Of a DNA stretch of 64,000 nucleotides, positions 2,133 to 45,801 are shown in pieces. Origin of the DNA: Eledone cirrhosa (taxonomy: Eukaryota); the NCBI GenBank assembly GCA_964016885.1, contig OZ024743.1:284332001-284396000 (forward strand). The letters are read 5' to 3'. The notes below the pieces were generated by a model. The model made no database searches and had not been told where the DNA came from. It saw only the letters and a program-made list of their open reading frames with translations. How positions within the stretch are numbered: position 1 is the first letter of the stretch; each line of letters opens with the position of its first letter. The translations under genes were made by a program, and so were the position numbers.

Positions 2133-2168
<36 letters not shown>

Positions 2169-2483
2169 CATCATGTAGAGCTAATTTTAATGTCTTGTTA
2201 ACCAGGCTGCTATTTTTAGCGGCATGGGATTTCGAGTGAAGCTGGGTTCCGAAGACACGTGGTTTAAATCTTATAGCACGATTTTCAGTCGTCTAATATG
2301 TTTAGAAGAGAAAGGATCGCTAATTTCTCAACAACTACTGTGTAGCAGGGAAAAGCGTGGACTTCACTTAATAAGATGTTGCGAAACAGTTCCCAAAACT
2401 GTCTAGTTGTTACCAGGCATTTTGCCCAATATAGGTGTTATTTTTCTTAATTTACTACTTAAAATTATATATATATATACATG

Positions 2484-10186: not shown

Positions 10187-13100
10187 CTACAGGATTAAAG
10201 CACCGCAAAATAGCAGTTTAATAATATATTGTGCTACACAGTTTTTTTGGCCAATGAACCCTCCGACCGGAATGAATCGTAGTCTTATATCTTGGTGATG
10301 GGGTGGGGTGGGGTGGGGGGACGAAGAAGCAGGTGTGTGTGCGAAAGAAAAAGACGGGGGCACTTGTGGTTCAGGTGCGATAGCATCTGTATCCAAATGT
10401 GCTCGTTTGAGTCTATCAATAGAAACCGTCTCTCTGGAACCCTTAATGTCTACAGTGAAATGTTTCTCTGAACGAGCTAATACACGGTAGGGTCCAGAGT
10501 ATGGTTGTGTGAGAGGTGGTTTCACGGCATCGTTCCTCACTAACACATGGGTCCACGAGGCAATATCCTTTGGGACTGCAGATTTTACAGTTTGCTTCCT
10601 CGTATCCATCGGAGGCAGGTCCTGAAAATAAGAACACAGGCGGGATACGTAGGAAAGCGAATTTTGTTCAGCAAGATCGACTGGGGCAAGCATTTGCCCA
10701 GGTAACGCTAGAGGAGCACCATATAACAATTCGGCCGGGGAGAACCCAAGGTCCTCCTTTATTGTTGACCGAATCGCCAACAACACAATAGGGAGGTACT
10801 TACTCCAGTGCGTAGAGCCAGGAGAAGTCCGGAGAGTGGCTTTCAGTTGTCGGTGGAAGCGCTCCACCATTCCATTAGAGGCAGGATGATATGCAGTAGT
10901 TCGTATGCGTTTAGCGCCGATGATCATCGTCAATTCATGGAAGAGGTTCGATTCAAACTGCCTTCCACGGTCCGTGGTAATTGATGTTGGCACTCCATAT
11001 CGGGCGATCCAACCAGACACAAGGGTACGCGCTGTGGTCTCAGCAGTGATATCCCTCAAGGGGATGGTTTCAGGCCATCGCAAAAAACGATCGATTACCG
11101 TCAATAAGTAATTGTAAGCACCGCTGATGGGCCAAGGTCCCACGATGTCCACATGAATGTGGCGAAACCGGGCGTCCGGGTTACTAAAAGTACCAAGAGG
11201 AGTCTTAATATGTCTATGAACTTTGGATTTCTGGCAAGCAACACAGGAACGGCACCAGACAGTAATTTCACGTCTCATATTTGGCCAGAAGAATCTAGCC
11301 GTTATGAGTTGTACTGTGGCAGAAGATCCAGGATGTGAAATGCTGTGCAAAACAAGAAACACAGTTCGACGATGGTTCAACGGAACAAAAGGGCGTGGCG
11401 TATCCAAAGAGACATCGCAGAGGATCCGTCCCTCTGCGGTCGGTAAAGGTAGGTATTTCATCCTGCAACTCACAAATTCAGGTGATGTAACATCCAATGA
11501 TTCGAGAGTAGGCTGATCGGCTGCCAAGTGATTCAAATCTATGTCATCGGGCGACGAGATTGAAGTAATCAGTAAATGAGACAGGGCGTCGGCCGCTGTA
11601 TTCATATGACCCGGAATATGTTGAATATCATTTGTAAACCGAGAGATGAGGTCAAGATGTCTAGTTTCTTTAGGCGAGTATTTGTCTGCCTTAACTTGCA
11701 AGGCGAATGTCAACGGCTTGTGGTCCGTGAAGATAGTAAACGTTCTTCCCTCAAGCATGTGCGAAAAATGTTTCACTGATAAATATATTGCTAGCAACTC
11801 CCGTCCAAAGGTGCTGTAGCGGGTTTCGGCGGGTTTCAGCTTCCTGGAGAAGAATTCCAACGGTTGCTGTTGATTGTTTCTACTTTGCTGCAAAACCGCG
11901 CCCACGGCAGTATCCGACGCATCAACACAAAGCGAAAGCTTAGCGTTGGACACTGGGTGAGCCAGCAAAGATGCATTGACTAGAACAATTTTCGCGCTCT
12001 CAGAATCCTGGAGCTGAGTTTCATTCAAAGAAATGTCTCTATTTTTCTTTCGACAATTTTTCAAAATTTCCGTCAAAGAGAAGAGTAGCTTAGCACAATT
12101 AGGCACAAACCGCCTATAAACATTAATCAGCCCCAAGAACTGGTGCAACTGACGAAGTGAAGTTGGTGGAGGCAAATCCTCTATAGCTTTAACTCTATCA
12201 GGAATAGGTCGAATACCGTCAGCATCAATGACGTGACCCAAAAAATCCAAAGATTCGGAACCAAAAACACATTTTGATGGATTAATCCGAACATTGTAAT
12301 TCTTCAATTGAGAAAATAGACGTTCCAGATGGCGCAAATGCTGCTCTGGAGAAGAGCTCACAACAAGGTCATCAATGTAGGTGTATTCAAAGTCGAGGCC
12401 ACGAGTGACCTCATCCATAAAATGCTGGAAGGTGCTAGCAGCATTCCTTAACCTGAAAGGCATGGTTAGAAATTCAAAAGATCCAAATGGCGTAGTTATA
12501 GCCGTTTTCGGGATGTCGTCTCTATTGACAGGAATATGGTTGTAGGCTCGTATCAAATCGAGCTTTGAAAAAATGTTGCAACCTTGCAACGAGGATGCAA
12601 AATCCTGCAAATGAGGGATAGGATACCGATCCGGTACGGTCATCGAGTTCAATCTTCTATAATCTCCAGAAGATTTTGGCACCATGTGTAATGGAGATGC
12701 CCACGGGCTCGTGGAAGGACGAATAATTCCAAGCTGTAGCATATGATCAAACTCGGACCGTGCTGCTTTCAATTTATCCGCTGGCAATCGACGATGACGC
12801 GAAAAAACCAGAGCGCCAGTTGTAATAATAAAATGCTCCATAACGTGACCTGGATCAGTGACTCTAAAAATTTCATGAGTCAATTGCGGGAACGATTTCA
12901 ACAGTCCATGATATAAGTTTCCAGAGTTAGCAATAAAGAAAGTCGGGCTAATTGTAGAAAATTCCGCCGTCCTGCCACAAAGAGAAAAACCAGTTATATC
13001 GTTAATCAGTCGTTGGTGACGAACGTCCACCGTCAAAGAAAAATGGTGCAGGAAGTCCGCGCCCAAAATCGGGTATGGCAGATCAGCAACAGTGAACACC

Positions 13101-13369
13101 CATTTGAAATCCCGACGAAGATTTCGGAACTTAAGAGGAAGCGAGATCTGTCCAAAAGTTCTGATTGCTGATTGGTTGACAGCTTGCAATTCAATCGACG
13201 ACTCAGGGGGAGTTACTGTCATAGTAGTAACAGGCCAAATACTGCACGAAGCTCCTGTGTCCACTAGGAAGGCTCTTCCAGACAGGAGGTCCTCAATGAA
13301 GAAATGGCGGTTCCGTTTTGTTTCGCAGAGTTCACTAGCCGCCTTTAGTGACTCTGGTCCACATTTCCC
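10187..13369 (-). CDS. pol: Gypsy Pol polyprotein (protease, RT, RNase H, integrase)
   Basis: Open frame of more than 1025 aa with FLVDTGA (PR), YIDD (RT), CVDASD (RH), HHCC zinc finger, DDE integrase core and GPY motif. The frame is open from the gag-pol slippery site. Small in-frame deletions are present in RT. Confidence 0.92.
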
Positions 13370-14132
13370 GCAGTCGAATAACTACACAGAGGCCGGCAAT
13401 TATTTGCCTTATCCGCATAGGTAGCATGATACCAGCACAATGATTGGTTGTTGGCGGGCGAAGTAGTACGTCGACGTGCAGTTGCGAAAGAACGCGAACG
13501 ACTCCTAAGCCGCCGGGAATACGGCCCATTCTCCCTGCATAATCGAGCGACTTGCTGCGTCAAAGTGTCAATAGCCTTCATCACGGCAACCTCGCGTGTC
13601 GAGACGGGCTGGTTTAAATGAGAGGAAGCGACACGTGAGTCCGAGGCCGTAGCCTTTTTAGAAAATTCCACGATTCGATCCGCGGAAGCAGCAATTTGCT
13701 CCAAAGAGCTGGTGTCCATTATATTTGCCAAAATAATTTGGACGTTGTTTGGCAGGCGAGAGGAAAATAATTTTTTATGAAAGAATTATCCTGTTCTGGC
13801 GATTCACTGAGGTCCCTAATGTGGCGTAAAAATTCGGAGGGCGACCTATCGCCTAGACACTCGTCCTCCAACAATGAACGAAATCTGCTCTCAGCAGAAC
13901 GACTGTTCCTTCGAAGAATTTCTTCCCGCAACGAGTCATAAGAAATACTGGCCGACAGGTTTGTAATTAAATCTTTCACTGTTATAGCGAGTGAAGAAGG
14001 AATTCCGCTTATCAAAAAGTTGAGCTTTTTCTCGGTTTTTACTTCGTTGGCATCAAAATAAGCGTCTAGCTGCGCAAACCAGAGTTTAGTATCGCCCGAG
14101 AACGCAGGCAAACCAGGATCACTCATCGTCAA
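13345..14132 (-). pseudogene. gag: Gypsy gag, split by one frameshift
   Basis: ORFs 13719-14132 and 13345-13731 join at the homopolymer near 13771-13777. Motifs LWFAQLDAYF, LGDRSPSEFL and CWYH-x9-C-x3-C. Confidence 0.85.
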
Positions 14133-14536
14133 TCTATTACCACATGGACGAATAAAATTAATTAATGTTTAAAACGACGGGAAAACAGTACAATTTTCAC
14201 CCAAATATCCATTAAGTTGCCGCAAGCAAAGGAAATTCAGTCATAGTACAAGAAATAGCAGCTAAAATCCAAAAGTTAGAATATGTGGAACAAGCTAACA
14301 GATATCAGACAAGATGGCGTTGCATTTCTTCTCCAAATTGAGAATATGGTTGCGTGATGAAGCTAAGCCAATCAGATGGCCGCATTTTAAGAAGAAAGAC
14401 AATGCACGGGAATGTTAGCTGGCCAGTCAGCCATGTTGGAAAAAAAAATTTCTTTTCTTTTTTTTTTTGTAAGATGAACAATTTTCAATTTAAAAACGAA
14501 TGGTGAAATTAAGAAGGTTGCGTTTACATATTTAAT

Positions 14537-21549: not shown

Positions 21550-21734
21550 TAGTGAGCCCCCTGCAATTGAGGGAATGAATTTCATGCAATATATATATAT
21601 TTGTTCAATGAAAAAGAGTTAGTTGATTTAGAATCAGCTGACTTTTATATAACAAATGTCAAGCACTCAACGGTATAGTTTATCCAAGCTCGTCTGACTG
21701 CCTGCATATCAAATGATTTCTACATCTCCTGTGG

Positions 21735-21809
21735 ATTTTATCTGAAGAGAACATGGTTTGGCCTATGTTATACATAAGTCTTTAATCTTCGAAATACGTA
21801 TAATAAAAT
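21735..21809 (+). ncRNA. Type I hammerhead ribozyme motif (Penelope type)
   Basis: attttat-CTGAAGA-gaa...ttc-GAAA-tacgta-TA-ataaaat. It has a 7-bp stem I, a palindromic stem III and triplet AUA. Confidence 0.65.
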
Positions 21810-21843
21810 AAATTGGGATGGACTAAAGTAATTGTCTTTTGTT

Positions 21844-22478: not shown

Positions 22479-22558
22479 CACCTGTTGATAAGCCCTCTGC
22501 AATATGGAATCTTCACTTTTTATGGCGAAACATACCCTAATTAGGGTATGTCCAGGTG
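22479..22558 (+). ncRNA. Type I hammerhead ribozyme with U3-A8 core variant
   Basis: cacctg-TTGATAA-gcc...ggc-GAAA-cataccctaattagggtatg-TC-caggtg. All three stems are intact and the triplet is GUC. Confidence 0.75.
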
Positions 22559-25500
22559 TAATAGTTATTATTGGATGGTTAGTACACTTTAATTTATTCT
22601 TTTAATTGATCTGTATAAGCCTTTCCTTTTGTAGACAATATATTGAACACTCTGGTGGTTTTCTATCCCCTATGATTAAACACATACCTCTTTGTGTACT
22701 TCTCTCTCTATACTGATTTATAAAGAGCCTGGAATATATTCCTTGAGCTCATTAAATTATAGGGGATTAAAGTGATTCTTTAACTCTGTTTTTTAATTTA
22801 ATATATATATAAAAATGATGGAAAAGAGTGGACAGAGGTGCTTGCAAGGAATCAAATCCTGCACCTCTTGGATGCTAGTCAAATGTATTATTCACCATGT
22901 AAAGAGCTGCTAGCCAGCAGTTCTGTCTTTTATAGCACTTAATGCCTGTAGATAGAAGTGTAAACAAAGCAACTGACTTAAAAAGCATTGGGAACATTTT
23001 TAATATTTACATCCCAATGCAAATGACCATAATAATCGTCAATCACTATAAATAATAGTTGAGAAAAATCGGGTAAAGTACTATCATTTACGGTGATTGA
23101 TTGTTATTAGTTGCAGTCTAGTGACTGAAACCACTACAAGGATAAAATATACACACACAGACACATACAGAAATCTAAGATAGATAATCACTAACAATAT
23201 AAGGAAGATCTTTTATGTTCTATCATTCTAACATACTTTAAAGACAAGAGATATCAGTATCAATCGACATAGTCATTACCAATCATCTGACTAAAATTCC
23301 AGATCAGTGCACATTTCTACCAATTACAAAGAGCTATGTACTAAATTTCATTAACTAATCAAATCACTAAAGAGATGAATAGAGGATATGCTTCATCACT
23401 TCCTAACTTAATGCCAACAACTAGTTACTGCACTGGTGAGTGAAATGGAATGCACTGAAGAAGCTGAGTCCAGCTCAATACTTAGACATCACCAGAACAA
23501 AGATAACCACAACTGTAGACTTGACAGTCAGTTTTGCCCAGTTTAATTATAGATCAACATCACTGTTTCTGCATTGCTAAATCTTTCATGTAATAATATA
23601 TGAAATTTTGGACAGTATGTCACTTTATCATACACATAATGATTCTTATTATATAGTTAAGATGATGCACTATTAACCCAAACTAAGGGTTCATGTATTT
23701 CTGTTACTGATAATATTTGATGTTTTTACTTTATTTGTTGACATCTACTCTGATATAAATACAGAGGTAGCATCATAACTACTCAACTAATTCAACTGAA
23801 ACATAAGTAGGCTAGTTCTGCAAAGTCAAATATTTTATTGAAGTTAATACATCCAATGCGTCTCCTATAAACCCATTTCATATCAAACAACTTGAAACTG
23901 CCTTAGTTTTATGACACCAAACTTCCAATTCATATTAAAATCTTCTACAAAAATTTTTAAAAAGAAATTCTAGATAACCCTTTATCATTTACATTACTCT
24001 ACATATACTACTATATTTTCATGATAAAGGCTTTATCTCACATAATATTGAATCTATGAGAATTTGATATTATTTATTTTGAGAACAATACCTAAACATC
24101 AGTATGAGTAGCCAGTTGCAGCTGGTTCGAACAGAAAAAGGTGAGAGAATTCTGGCCAGATACAGCCAGTTTAAATGCTAAAGGGTTAAGTAATGTTTTA
24201 AACATCAGCTTCACGATAGAAAGGTTAATTATTTTATTAAATTCCTCCCAACTTTCAATGATTTTCAAAATTCAATGAAACACATAGGTAGTTTATTTGA
24301 TTAGAGATAAAGTAACAAATGGATTAATGAAAGAAAATGACAACTGAAAATCGAAAATAGGTTGAGACTTAGGATACTTTACAACATTTGTCTCACTAGA
24401 AGATATTTCATTAGAGTAAAAGCAAAATGGCTGATTGGATATGATATTGGCTATCAGCTTGAGTTTAAAATCCCTGCCAGCAATTTGTTTTAAGTATTTG
24501 ATCTGGATCTTTTATTCTACACAATTTAGTTTTCTTAGCTGTCAGCAATATCTTCAAAATCCACAGAGTGTGTTACCTAGGGAAGATTTATATCTCATCT
24601 GCTTCATGCCATGAACCAAAGCTAAGAACGAGGCCATGGAAGGAAAGGTTTCACCATGTATGAATGAAAGAGAGCATATAAGTAAGTCATTGATTTCTTC
24701 TAATCAAGTGGAAACAACATAACTATATCTAATTGGACAACGTAACTACATCAAATAACAATTGATAATTATAACCTTTGGTAATTACGCTATTTCACTC
24801 TAACCACAGCACATATGACTATTAATTACAAAGTATCTAACGATGTATAGCTAAACAATCCCAATAACTACATAATTTCTTCAAACCTATAATCTACTTT
24901 TAATTACTGGTATATGTCATCATAAAAAATACAGTCAACCTTTGATAATAAGCTAATACACTAGAAACTAACAAGCAAGACTAATTGGCTGCAGCCAAAT
25001 CTCCCTCAAATCATACCCTACCATCTTAAGAAAAGGGAAGTAGAATATAGATAATGAAGACCTAGATAGAATAGTCATAACTGAAATTTATTTGATGAGT
25101 CTGCTTGACCAGAGGTGATTTGGATATTTTAGGGCAACATTCTTTGTGTATCTGGCAGCTATTCGCGATAGTGGTTTTAAACACAAGACCTATGAACTAA
25201 TAGCCCAATATCTTATCTGTTCAGTCATTCTACTTGTACTTTACTGAAATATCTTAAAATGGGATGTAAAGTTGGTTAAGTCTGCAACCCATTTTTAATT
25301 TTCATTTGGTGCAACTTTTTTTTGTTTATGTTAAATATCAAATTATGGATACTATGCAGTGTCTAGTTTGATCAAAATATGTTTCTAACAATGAGAAATA
25401 TTAGAACTAAATAAGTAATTAGAAATAATTTAAGTAAAACCTAGCTTTGTTCTTAACATTTGTCATTTTTTTAAATTTATAATTAATTACCCAAACAATA

Positions 25501-30872: not shown

Positions 30873-31243
30873 ATCATCATTTTACGTCCACTTTTCCCTG
30901 CTTGCAAGGGTGGGACAGGAACTGATTTTTGGCTTGATTTTTACAACTGGATGCCCTTCCTAACACCAACCTCATTTACAGTGAGTGCTGGGTACTTTTT
31001 TGCCGTGGCACCTACACATCCACTTTACAGTGTGGGCTGGGTGCTTTTTTGCCGTGGCACCTCCATGACCACTTTGCAGTGGAATGATAGGGACCCCAGT
31101 CCCTATCATCTCATTTCTACAGCTGAGTAAACTGGAGCAATGTGAAATAAAGTGTCTTGCTCAAGGAAACAACACACCACCCGGTCTGAGAATTGAACTC
31201 ACAACCTTTCGATTGCAAGGCCAATGCTCTAACCACTAAGCCT
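30873..31243 (-). mobile_element. SINE family A (tRNA head, CORE-like middle, RTE tail)
   Basis: Reverse complement of 36705-37048 with one extra ~42-bp tail unit. Confidence 0.88.
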
Positions 31244-31277
31244 TCACATATATAATTGAATATAAAATAGAGATAAA

Positions 31278-31893
31278 CACAGATATAAACATACATGTGT
31301 TCAAATTGTAGGGAACCAAGTTCGCCAGGTTGAAGAAAATACTAACTATTAACTATATGGTTTGCCAGACTCAATTTAAAATAATAAATCAAGAAAAAGA
31401 AAAACAAACCTATATATGGTAACTGCCAAAACACCCAGACAGCTTTGGTGGCTGTTTCGCAATTATTAGCGAAGGAAATCACCAATTCTTTGCTCTTCAG
31501 TGGGTGTAAAATTAGTAATCCCTCCACTTCTAAGTATCTCAGAAGACTGAATAGTGTGCGAGTATAAAAAAATAAACGCACATGGCATCAGAACCTAGCC
31601 AGTCACATAAAGATACGCTATTAAAAATAGCAGCTAAGTTTACAGGACATTTAAATTAGCTCTACAAATTTGATGGAGCCGACTATATCAAAGGTATATA
31701 TTGAGTTAGAAACTCAAAGTAGTCTCTTACAATTAAATAGCTCAAAGAAAGAGATATAAACATACATGTGTTCAAATTGTAAGGGACCAAGTTTGCCAGG
31801 TTGAAAAAAATACTAACTATTAATTATATATATATGGTTTGGCAGACTCAATTTAAAATAATAAATCAAGATAAAGAAAAACAAACCTATATA
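31278..31893 (-). repeat. Partial tandem repeat (471-bp period) containing a hammerhead ribozyme; pLTR- or retrozyme-like
   Basis: A ~135-bp segment at 31278-31415 is repeated at ~31750-31893, and the hammerhead lies between the two copies. Confidence 0.8.
31431..31507 (-). ncRNA. Canonical type I hammerhead ribozyme
   Basis: Minus strand: acaccca-CTGAAGA-gcaa...ttgc-GAAA-cagc(caccaaa)gctg-TC-tgggtgt. It has a 7-bp stem I, G10.1-C11.1, a 5-bp stem III and triplet GUC. Confidence 0.88.
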
Positions 31894-33280
31894 TCATCAC
31901 CAGTTAACGTCCATTTTCCAAACTAGCATGGGTTAAATGAGTTGCCCCATTGTGAGACAGCCAGGTCAGGTGACCATATTTTGCTCATACAAGACTGGTT
32001 TTGGCTTGGTTTCTATGGCTGGATGCCCTTCCTAACACCAACAAACCTACAGTGTATGCTGGGTATTTTTTGTTGTGACACCTACATGACCACCTTACGG
32101 TGAGGGCTGGGCATTTTTTGTTGTGACACTGACATGACCACTTTACAGTGTGGGTTGGGCGCTTTTTATCATGTTACTCACACAACTACTTTACAGTGTG
32201 GACTGGGGGCTTTTTGTCATGCTACCTACACAACCACTTTACAGTGTGGGCTGGGGGCTTTTTGTTGTCACCTACACGACCATTTTATAGTGTGGGCTAG
32301 GGGGCTTTTTGTGGTAGCACCTATACAACCACATTATAGTGAGGGCTGGGCGCTTTTTGTTGTGTCACCATCACGAACACTTTATAGTGTGGGCTGGAGA
32401 TGCAAGAGAGGGAAGGTGGTTAAGGCACAGAGGTGTATGGAAGGGGGAGGTTTTCCCTCAAAACGAAAGGCAGATTGTATGATGTGTGCATACAGGACAC
32501 ATGGGAAGGCAGGTCTTCTGTATTGCTTCATAACACCAGAGATCTCGATCCTATGTCATCGCTTTTGAGAGGTGCAATTGTGCAAGGTCAGCTTTTATCA
32601 CTTCATCACAAGTCTTCTTACACCGTAGCTTCCAGCAATTTTGAGCCCTTGCACTTTTTTATGCAGCTGTCATCCTTCATACGGATCACGTCCATGTCAA
32701 TGCATTCTGCTCTCCTGCACATTGCATCTGACCCCTCTTATACCCAGTTTCTTGCTCAGTTCATTTATGCTTTGCTGTATATGTATATTACTATTACACA
32801 TCCATTGAAGCATGCCAGCTTCCTTTCTTTCCAATCTTCATAGGTCCTCATCACACAGTGCCCAGATCTCACTACCAAGCAACATTGCCGTTTGTATGCA
32901 CACATCATACAATCTGCCTTTCGTTTTGAGGGAAAACCATTTTGTGGCTAGCAGTGGTAGTAGCTCCCTGAACCTCTCTCCATCCTATTCTCACTGCTAA
33001 TTTAGTCGTCTGGGTAACAGAAACTATCAATTCCTTCTACTGAGCCTTCTGGGCATTTAAAGGAGTTAGTATCCGGTGGGCTATTGCTATTACTGCCAAT
33101 GTGCAACAGCCACATATTAAACCTTCATTCTTTGCTAGTCTACCTGAGATCCCACTACATCTCTTGTGTATCCATAGATTGCACCAGGGGCATAGAATGG
33201 AGTTTCTACCTATTCCTTCCCTGCACACTGAGCAAGGCCATTTCCCTGAGTGAATCTGGGCCCTGTTATCCTTTCTACAT
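31894..33280 (-). mobile_element. Decayed RTE LINE 3' half with expanded ~42-bp 3' UTR repeat
   Basis: GRNSILCPWCNLWIHKRCSGISG on the minus strand. About eight tandem UTR units at 32045-32397. Confidence 0.85.
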
Positions 33281-37048: not shown

Positions 37049-37257
37049 ATATATATATATATATATAATATACATATATATATATAATATACATATATAT
37101 ATATAATATACATATATATATATAATATACATATGTATAATATATATATATATATATATATATTATATACATAATATACATATATATATATATATATTAT
37201 ATACATATATATATATATATATAATGTACATATATATATATACATATATATATATAG

Positions 37258-38822
37258 CTAATTCCATACACCAGAGTATAACTGTAACTATCGACTTCCC
37301 TTCCAAACACCCTAACAATAGACTACCTGTATTAGACACGGAACTCTGGATTAACACTATAGACGAGAGAGCCCAAATTCTCCACTCACACTATGCTAAA
37401 CCCATGGCCTCCAAATACCTGATACTCAAAAACTCAGCAATGTCCAGTAGTGCTAAGTTTAATATTCTGATCGCAGATTTGGTACGAATGATGAAGAATG
37501 TGTCCCGCATGTGCGACCCAACAGAAATGGAAAGACACATCCAACACTTCATCAACCGCATGCAGTTCTCTGGCTACAACCAAAGAGACAGAGTCAGAGT
37601 ATACGAAGGAGCCATGGAGAAGTATAAGACCCTCATAGAACTGGACATGAAAGGAATTTGCCCATTATACAGGAGCAAATCATGGAATAGCTTAGATAGG
37701 GCTAGACATAAGATAGCGAAAGCCACCTCATGGTACGACAACCAGAGATACCAGAGTGTCATGTTTGTGGACGCTACCCCTGGAGGGAAATTAGCTAACC
37801 AGTGTAGAAAGGCCCTGAGAAAGACCCACTTAAAGATTAAGGTGGTAGAAAAGCCAGGAACCACCATAAAATCCCTGATCAGCAAAACCTACCCTTTTAA
37901 GAAAACCCACTGTACTAATAGGAAATGTATCATATGTAAGGTAAACCCCCGAATAAACTGTAAAACTAGAAATGTAGTCTATAGCATAAGATGTACAGAG
38001 GGTACTTGCAGAAACATGACAACAACATACATAGGCGAGACAGCTCGTAGCATAGGTGAAAGGATAGACCAACACTGGGGGGAACTATAAGGACGAAAAA
38101 ACGGGTCAGTACTATACGAACATGCCAGACAACAACACGACGGTAACATAGACAACATAGAAATTAGAATAATATCTAAACATAGAAATGATCCAGCAGA
38201 TAGGCAAATCAGAGAGGCCAGTGAAATAGAACTTAGAAGGCCAAGACTAAACAGAAAGAATGAATGGAATAACAACAACACCCAAACAAACAACACTGAC
38301 CTAAGAGAAGTATAAATAAATAAATAAATAAATAAATAGATAAATAAATAAATAAATACATACACAAGCACAATAACAACAAACACATATAAACACACAC
38401 TAGTAAAGATAGAATACATAGAATACAATCACGAACACACATCAAACAAAACACTATACACACACACAAACTTAAAGAAGACCAAATAAAATAAACAAAC
38501 AAACAAATAAATAAATAAATATATAGACAGACTAAATAAAAATGGCGTAGACATACAATATAACAGGAGGAAACAATAGCACCACTGACGATGTTGCAGA
38601 TGTGCAACGAAAGAACTTTGATAAACTATATATGTGTTTGTGTCTATATTGTATCTGTATTATTTTTGACCGTCGGTCAGTCAATGGCAACATTGAGGAC
38701 CGAATAAATTAGATTACCGATATAAAAGACACAGAAGCGAAAAGCGAAAACCAACCAAACAGTGAGTGTGTTCTGTTATTAATTCTGGCAATATTACACA
38801 AATAAGACCCTCCCCAAGTATA
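37258..38822 (+). mobile_element. 5'-truncated Penelope-like retroelement (RT C-terminus, Cys-rich linker, GIY-YIG endonuclease, pLTR)
   Basis: LPVLDTELW, NVVYSIRC...YIGETARSIGERIDQH. An in-frame stop at 38088-38090 is followed by SVLYEHA...RQIREA...LNRKNEW. A hammerhead-like core CTGACGA-T-GTTGCA-gatg-TGCAAC-GAAA lies at 38585-38612. Confidence 0.9.
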
Positions 38823-39134
38823 ACAATATATATATAATATACATATATATATATAATATACATATATATATATAATATACATATATATATATAATATACA
38901 TATATATATATAATATACATATATATATATATAATATACATATATATATATATAATATACATATATATAAATAATATACATATATATAATATACATATAT
39001 ATATATATATATAATATACATATATATCATCATCATCATTTTACGTCCGCTTTTCCCTGCTTGCAAGGGTTGGACTGGTCTTATTAAGCACAGCATCTCT
39101 CCACCCGTCATATATATAGTATACATATATAGAT

Positions 39135-45661: not shown

Positions 45662-45801
45662 CCAATAACTACAATTATAAAATCTAGAATGTTCCATCCA
45701 TTGCGTAGATATGCACCCGGATGTAACACAAATCCATAGGCTATGATCTTCATGGCGCATTCTAGTGTGAAGATCACAAGGAATACATATTCCACATTTT
45801 C
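45662..45801 (-). CDS. CACNA1D: Internal coding exon of an L-type voltage-gated calcium channel alpha-1 subunit (Cav1; CACNA1C/D-like), domain I S2-S3
   Basis: Minus strand reads acceptor attgtattttctttttcAG, then 140 nt, then donor GTAAGT. It translates in phase 0 as [46 protein letters not shown](G), matching the Cav1 IS2-IS3 signature ([11 protein letters not shown]). The ORF track shows a different frame here. The symbol denotes the invertebrate Cav1 orthologue. Confidence 0.95.

Follow-up and report, generated by a model that had tools for sequence, protein, structure and literature searches.

A hammerhead-bearing repeat in a Cav1-type intron of Eledone cirrhosa is probably a decayed copy of a non-autonomous Penelope-like mini-element

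Results

The host intron and its surroundings

We analyzed a 64,000-nt stretch of the Eledone cirrhosa genome, referred to here as the window, whose features are collected in Table 1. On its minus strand lies an exon whose best match is domain I of Cav1.2 (65 bits, versus 47 for Cav2.2), and further domain I exons were found on the same strand, both ~49 kb upstream of this exon and 18 to 35 kb beyond the window start, with the next exon, which begins ~18 kb past that start, joining in frame; this next exon, which differed from the search pattern (0 pattern matches), was found by reading the flanks. As in-frame exons flank it on the same strand, the hammerhead motif described below sits in a sense intron of 63.7 kb, with the 5' splice site (donor) 14.2 kb upstream and the acceptor 49.5 kb downstream, which confirms the co-orientation with a Cav1-type gene that had been proposed. 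GC content of the region is 0.34. The window also holds an LTR retrotransposon at 10187-14168 (-), with a 1064-aa open frame and RT, RNase H, and integrase domains.

Table 1. Features of the hammerhead-bearing insertion and of its surroundings, in window positions
Feature	Position	Strand	Basis or remark
Decayed family A relative, 71%	2166-2466	(+)	core broken; TA runs on both flanks
Family C, decayed copy	22480-22812	(+)	hammerhead core UUGAUAA, 10-bp stem III
tRNA-derived SINE directly 3' of element	31085-31244	(-)	Rfam tRNA, 26 bits
Whole insertion, partial tandem of family A unit	31250..31893	(-)	consensus alignment, flanks
3'-terminal 28 nt, overlooked in the original prediction	31250..31277	(-)	first fixed 3' end, into short TA stretch
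Downstream direct repeat (second repeat of the original prediction)	31278..31417	(-)	repeat alignment
Segment D, alternative partner of segment U, predicted release	31330..31346	(-)	-15.1 kcal/mol
Predicted cleavage site	between 31438 and 31437	(-)	GUC position
Stem III, 5 bp with 7-nt loop; then GUC		(-)	sequence reading
Core GAAA	31458-31455	(-)	sequence reading
Stem II, 4-bp base and 8-bp extension		(-)	sequence reading
Core CUGAAGA	31500-31494	(-)	sequence reading
Stem I, 7 bp	31507-31501 / 31437-31431	(-)	sequence reading
Segment U, predicted lock, complementary to stem II arm	31508..31530	(-)	-22.9 kcal/mol
Tail module common to families A-D	31684..31752	(-)	far end is family A's second fixed 3' end
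Upstream repeat, 5'-truncated, pLTR-like	31752..31893	(-)	starts 22 nt past the unit's cleavage site
48-nt tandem SINE-like repeat, 5' of element	31900-32400
5'-truncated RT-GIY-YIG Penelope copy	37107-38850	(+), antisense to Cav1	very young, very abundant family
Cav1-type exon, domain I S2-S3	45662..45801	(-)	protein match

The insertion is a partial tandem of a 517-nt unit

The insertion belongs to a repeat family, family A, whose unit is 517 nt long in the consensus of 42 near-full copies. Aligned to this consensus, the window copy consists of unit positions 364-497, followed by 30-517 and 1-11 (~1.25 units), and its main part is 92% identical to the consensus, i.e., 8% diverged. At the junction 51 nt are missing, with a 2-nt microhomology there. 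In three contig runs of one sample, 8 to 10 contigs per run finish in TA runs at 31684, contigs of other copies continue at 31757 into the segment missing from the window copy, and no contig spans the window locus itself. A small hairpin (31701-31715, minus strand) lies within the tail module. The direct repeats that had been predicted (~135 bp, spaced 471 bp apart) are present, at ~140 nt, 91% alike, with a spacing of 471 to 477 nt; the accompanying assumption of a 471-bp unit does not hold, as 471 is a spacing private to the window copy that results from the 51 nt missing at its junction. Nor does the element end at 31278, since it continues to ~31250. Protein-coding content is absent, as expected, and all three sense frames of the family A consensus are interrupted. 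The window copy has only one ribozyme, so that double cleavage at its locus could not yield a circle of 471 nt; the suggested circle of that size is unsupported, and a monomer would be ~517 nt. We found no inverted partner at the window locus and no discernible target-site duplication in its TA flanks.

A complete type I hammerhead

Sequence reading and folding of 31431-31507 (-) bore out the complete core and three helices claimed for this motif. The type I hammerhead, with its ends joined in stem I, is both the MFE and the centroid fold of positions 31425-31515 (91 nt; -24.8 kcal/mol; z -2.3; 3 of 200 shuffles equally good). A strict descriptor found 4 hammerheads in the 214 kb around the site, versus 1 in 10 shuffled replicates; 2 of the 4 are sense and 2 antisense to the Cav1 gene, too few for an orientation bias. 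The Rfam check that the original prediction had proposed gave 0 hammerhead matches at the gathering score and none up to E 10, perhaps because stems II and III are long.

Copy number and conservation of family A

A first look gave 3694 candidates for this repeat, of which the best 40 were scored and were all similar. A 17-base stem I/core pattern has 178 exact matches in the genome (control, 0) and is exact in 26 of 49 sampled family A ribozymes, from which we estimate a few hundred ribozyme-bearing copies. The tail pattern of families A and B together has 537 exact matches (control, 0); with ~31 A-type tails among the 100 listed of these 537, and family A tails exact in 30/90, there should be at least 500 family A tail segments. 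These copy-number figures are lower bounds from biased samples, the loci having been chosen as best matches and not at random. The element is accordingly no single-copy unit but one of several hundred dispersed copies, as befits the repeat family first suspected.

The ribozyme core is intact in 43 of 77 family A copies, and alignment columns have a mean conservation of 0.93 within the ribozyme versus 0.91 to 0.94 in other parts of the unit, which offers no argument for selection acting on individual copies. Folding of the unit indicates strong structure (z -4.6, 0/100 shuffles), and the unit closes on itself: past the tail the next ribozyme follows within 180 nt, and no ORF lies between them. 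Just 3' of the ribozyme, consensus positions 370-453 (window 31410-31326 region) form an 84-nt GT-AG candidate intron, whose pyrimidine tract is segment D and whose 3' site is altered in the window copy; no spliced version was found among the loci examined.

Insertion marks point to Penelope-type insertion

An adjacent inverted piece accompanies 49 of the 73 non-redundant family A loci. The 3' ends (n = 127) fall mostly at two fixed sites ~88 nt apart that flank an optional tail, 48 at unit positions 8-15 and 53 at 84-100 (101/127), and these fixed ends are followed by a TA run in 77 of 101 cases, versus 8 of 26 among the other 3' ends. The 5' ends are scattered, 2 of 127 lying within 5 nt of the cleavage site where 2.7 would be expected if they were even; the ribozyme does not set the 5' ends of family A insertions. 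The longest copy at the 73 loci is 872 nt, and the window copy and many others are partial tandems of 1 to 1.7 units. Endonuclease-bearing PLEs are described as forming partial tandems and inverted copies truncated at the 5' end, with a tail that is optional and a bias toward microsatellites (PMC8557442, PMC3846280), and an anole Penelope element was shown to start RT at two sites that flank its tail, to insert at AT-rich targets, and to use RNA that is uncleaved (PMC11167929). As the insertion marks of family A match both descriptions, a Penelope reading is favored; the idea of a ribozyme-bearing non-autonomous retroelement family of the retrozyme or pLTR kind thereby gains support and can be made more specific, as one of Penelope-type insertion.

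Among the loci read (~1 Mb), no copy of families A to D reached PLE coding sequence. No autonomous element with a family A-D tail or ribozyme was found in this ~1 Mb of loci either (genome, 3.0 Gb), and we therefore infer a Penelope mobilizer from the insertion marks only. GIY-YIG fragments beside family copies were considered as partners and rejected, since in the sequence examined they have no end in common with the family copies and are insertions of their own. The Penelope copy within the window belongs to a family with 97 to 99% protein identity among 137 scored of 30651 candidates, open frames that reach 1304 aa and contain an asparagine-rich insert, and the cysteine linker described for Neptune; Pfam gave no match on the 37107-38850 fragment. 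A minimal hammerhead lies near 38590 in this copy, and the family ends with a ribozyme and then a 3' end in TA, the same arrangement as in family A. It was likewise rejected as the partner of family A: its 3' region has only low-complexity similarity to the unit (30 loci), and its end is its own and unrelated.

Three sister families

Families B, C, and D, to which a tail-like match led, have a 3' module in common with family A. Family B (466 nt) is 67% identical to A across 160 nt of the tail region, and copies of family C vary in the core (C3-G8, U3-G8, or U3-A8). Family D (566 nt) is young, with copies 92 to 99% alike and very long stems II and III, and its core UUGAUAA, a fixed U3-A8 swap, is present in 14/14 segments and has 201 exact genome matches; this core swap has been described for a Schistosoma variant (PMC4209133). 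We regard family D as the one most likely to be active today and as the most promising for tracing the mobilizer. Stem III is stable in all four families, and their four stem I sequences are different, each of them paired. The different but paired stems, together with the fixed U3-A8 core, argue that the ribozyme is under selection in source elements.

Other hammerhead-like motifs were also seen. An additional type I hammerhead, whose stem III is short and palindromic, lies at 21732-21812 (+), and related motifs occur in many loci. At 5 loci there are small palindromic insertions around a further hammerhead-like motif, with a 3-bp stem III and ends in TA runs.

A predicted folding lock

Inclusion of 15 more upstream bases alters the predicted fold of the window ribozyme, with segment U now pairing to the arm of stem II (of 200 shuffled elements, 1 contained an equally good window). 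The predicted probability of stem I is 0.00 to 0.01 until ~120 nt past the cleavage site; with segment D present it is 0.87, with stems II and III at 0.6, and in a 1.3-kb context it is down to 0.06. Of 78 copies, 55 were predicted to fold alone; in a short context 40 of these 55 were predicted to be locked and 11 of the 40 to reopen. Of the 29 copies with an intact core and both segments, 27 were predicted to fold alone, and in a longer context 22 to lock and 7 of the 22 to reopen. The lock is not general, being absent from families B and D by the same kind of prediction, and in a circle of the family A consensus stem I is predicted to form and stems II and III to misfold. Complementary sequence has been described as blocking the ribozyme in plant retrozymes, in viroids, and in some of the circles from mussels (PMC7229834).

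Discussion

In our judgment, with a probability of roughly 0.8, the window copy is a decayed copy of a dispersed non-coding repeat, a non-autonomous Penelope-like mini-element, and its site in the Cav1 intron is likely accidental. Mini-elements of this kind are also called non-LTR retrozymes. The mobilized RNA would be longer than one unit, either through read-through of a partial tandem or as a circle ligated after two-ribozyme cleavage, and would be bound at the tail hairpins by a Penelope protein. The endonuclease would nick a TA run as target, reverse transcription would begin at either side of the tail and stop at random, and a second, inverted copy would often be made during insertion; the Penelope protein would thus copy the mini-element into (TA)n sites, with the ribozyme likely kept active in source elements.

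The lack of an Rfam hammerhead match and a fold z-score that is modest taken alone might suggest that the motif arose by chance in AT-rich repeat DNA, but the four families have an identical core with differing yet paired stems, and the descriptor control gave 1 match in 10 shuffles; family comparison and control together refute this reading, whose probability we consider negligible. It is also quite improbable that the copies are mere solo pLTRs, the truncated 3' ends that an autonomous Penelope element would leave. PLE copies are described as mostly 5'-truncated (PMC8557442) and many family A copies are shorter than one unit, as this would require, but the unit closes on itself without an ORF, 0/30 ribozyme-centered loci extend into PLE coding sequence, and where a same-strand ribozyme pair lies 3954 nt apart, the 440 nt sampled from the middle are non-coding; the closed units and the missing coding extension largely refute it. 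A less clear-cut matter is whether family A is a circle-forming non-LTR retrozyme, in which two-ribozyme loci release a 517-nt monomer that circularizes and then serves as the template from which new copies are made. This reading concerns the template and can be combined with the Penelope mini-element explanation. It would fit with copies that cross the unit junction and have 5' ends that ignore the cleavage site, with the strong structure of the unit, with the circles demonstrated for mollusc retrozymes (PMC7229834), and with the two ribozymes spaced 510 to 519 nt apart at 4 of 73 loci. Such pairs are, however, found at only those 4 loci, and the window locus has a single ribozyme; none of the best 40 matches to a 1.7-unit query was longer than 1.7 units, and the 100 listed of the 178 core matches included one tandem pair at unit spacing but no array of three. 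In addition, uncleaved RNA is described as the main substrate in PMC11167929, and 8 of 9 predicted dimers failed to cleave according to a preprint (bioRxiv 10.64898/2026.07.22.740005). We therefore hold a circular template to be a genuine possibility, albeit not the one we expect.

The original prediction went on to suggest that the ribozyme could cleave the channel pre-mRNA, and a copy co-opted in this way might tune channel expression or splicing. Cleavage is possible: the motif is in sense orientation with an intact core and stems, its stem III is monomer-competent, its active fold is predicted at 0.6 once segment D is present, and ~49.5 kb of intron still to be transcribed leaves time. It looks incidental, however, given the 8% divergence, the predicted lock, which holds stem I at near-zero probability for the first ~120 nt past the site, and a core that is intact widely in the family (43/77) in a ribozyme region whose conservation does not exceed that of other parts of the unit. 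An intron cleaved by a hammerhead is, moreover, described as still spliced efficiently, with splicing blocked only by a faster ribozyme (PMC2995048). In Cav1 pre-mRNA the ribozyme would probably start out locked and then cut slowly or not at all, with little predicted effect on splicing, and we consider co-option very unlikely. Residence in introns is in itself common for such elements, as 42 to 44% of retrozyme copies are reported in introns in Xenopus (bioRxiv 10.64898/2026.07.22.740005). There is no sign of selection for Cav1 control, the element being multi-copy and without excess conservation. Amniote intronic ribozymes and CPEB3 are conserved single loci. The window copy resembles them in placing a self-cleaving motif on the sense strand of a long intron in a neural gene (PMC6765202), but it is one neutrally diverged member of a repeat family.

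Among known elements, family A is like the metazoan non-LTR retrozymes (PMC7229834; bioRxiv 10.64898/2026.07.22.740005) in its short, non-coding, low-GC unit with a full type I hammerhead and in coexisting with autonomous PLEs. It differs from retrozymes in having no long tandem arrays among the copies examined (at most 1.7 units), although the preprint, which derives retrozymes from PLE pLTRs, describes some families that are mostly monomers; with its one ribozyme, the window locus would also not pass as active by the two-ribozyme test described there (bioRxiv 10.64898/2026.07.22.740005). Circles are reported for mollusc retrozymes (PMC7229834), whereas a circle of family A is putative. With endonuclease-bearing PLEs, as described in PMC8557442, PMC3846280, PMC11167929, and PMC4209133, family A shares the partial tandem, the inverted 5'-truncated partner, the optional tail, the microsatellite targets, and a type I hammerhead upstream of the 3' end. 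Unlike them, it has no ORF and no homology to an autonomous family in ~1 Mb of loci, and two further differences count against our preferred explanation: its tail is ~88 nt, versus the 30 to 40 nt described for PLEs, and its 5-bp stem III is stable, unlike that of most metazoan PLE ribozymes, for which a short palindrome that needs a dimer is described. Chlamys elements such as MRC1 are, similarly, non-autonomous PLE derivatives forming pLTRs, but they are green-algal, mostly without canonical hammerheads, and frequently multicopy in head-to-tail order (PMC8557442).

The origin of animal retrozymes as non-autonomous Penelope derivatives was proposed in 2020 by Cervera and de la Pena (PMC7229834), and the same origin was argued for vertebrates by Li, Clavereau and Pollet in 2026, with invertebrates left open (bioRxiv 10.64898/2026.07.22.740005). 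The kind of element is thus already known; families A to D have apparently not been described before, although they may be catalogued as repeats. We found no description of them among the articles found on octopus or cephalopod hammerheads and Penelope, and the word "ribozyme" is absent from the main text, as available, of two octopus repeat papers (PMC13282606, PMC8967140).

A more speculative reading of the folding predictions, which we put forward tentatively and think rather unlikely, is that family A carries a timing switch, with a 21-nt upstream lock and a release 100 nt downstream, and that the tail shared by B to D is a compact recognition signal for the Penelope protein. If so, only near-full-length transcripts would be cut and circularize and host introns would be largely spared, and families B to D would have kept the two-hairpin tail between the RT start sites with nearly all else changed.

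For the non-autonomous Penelope-like mini-elements that we favor, the clan of families A to D is a further case, from an invertebrate, in which insertion marks are clear, ribozymes are monomer-competent, and one young family has a natural U3-A8 variant of the core. It provides no evidence that a ribozyme controls a calcium channel; its members are small natural substrates with which to probe the roles of the ribozyme and the tail in Penelope mobility.
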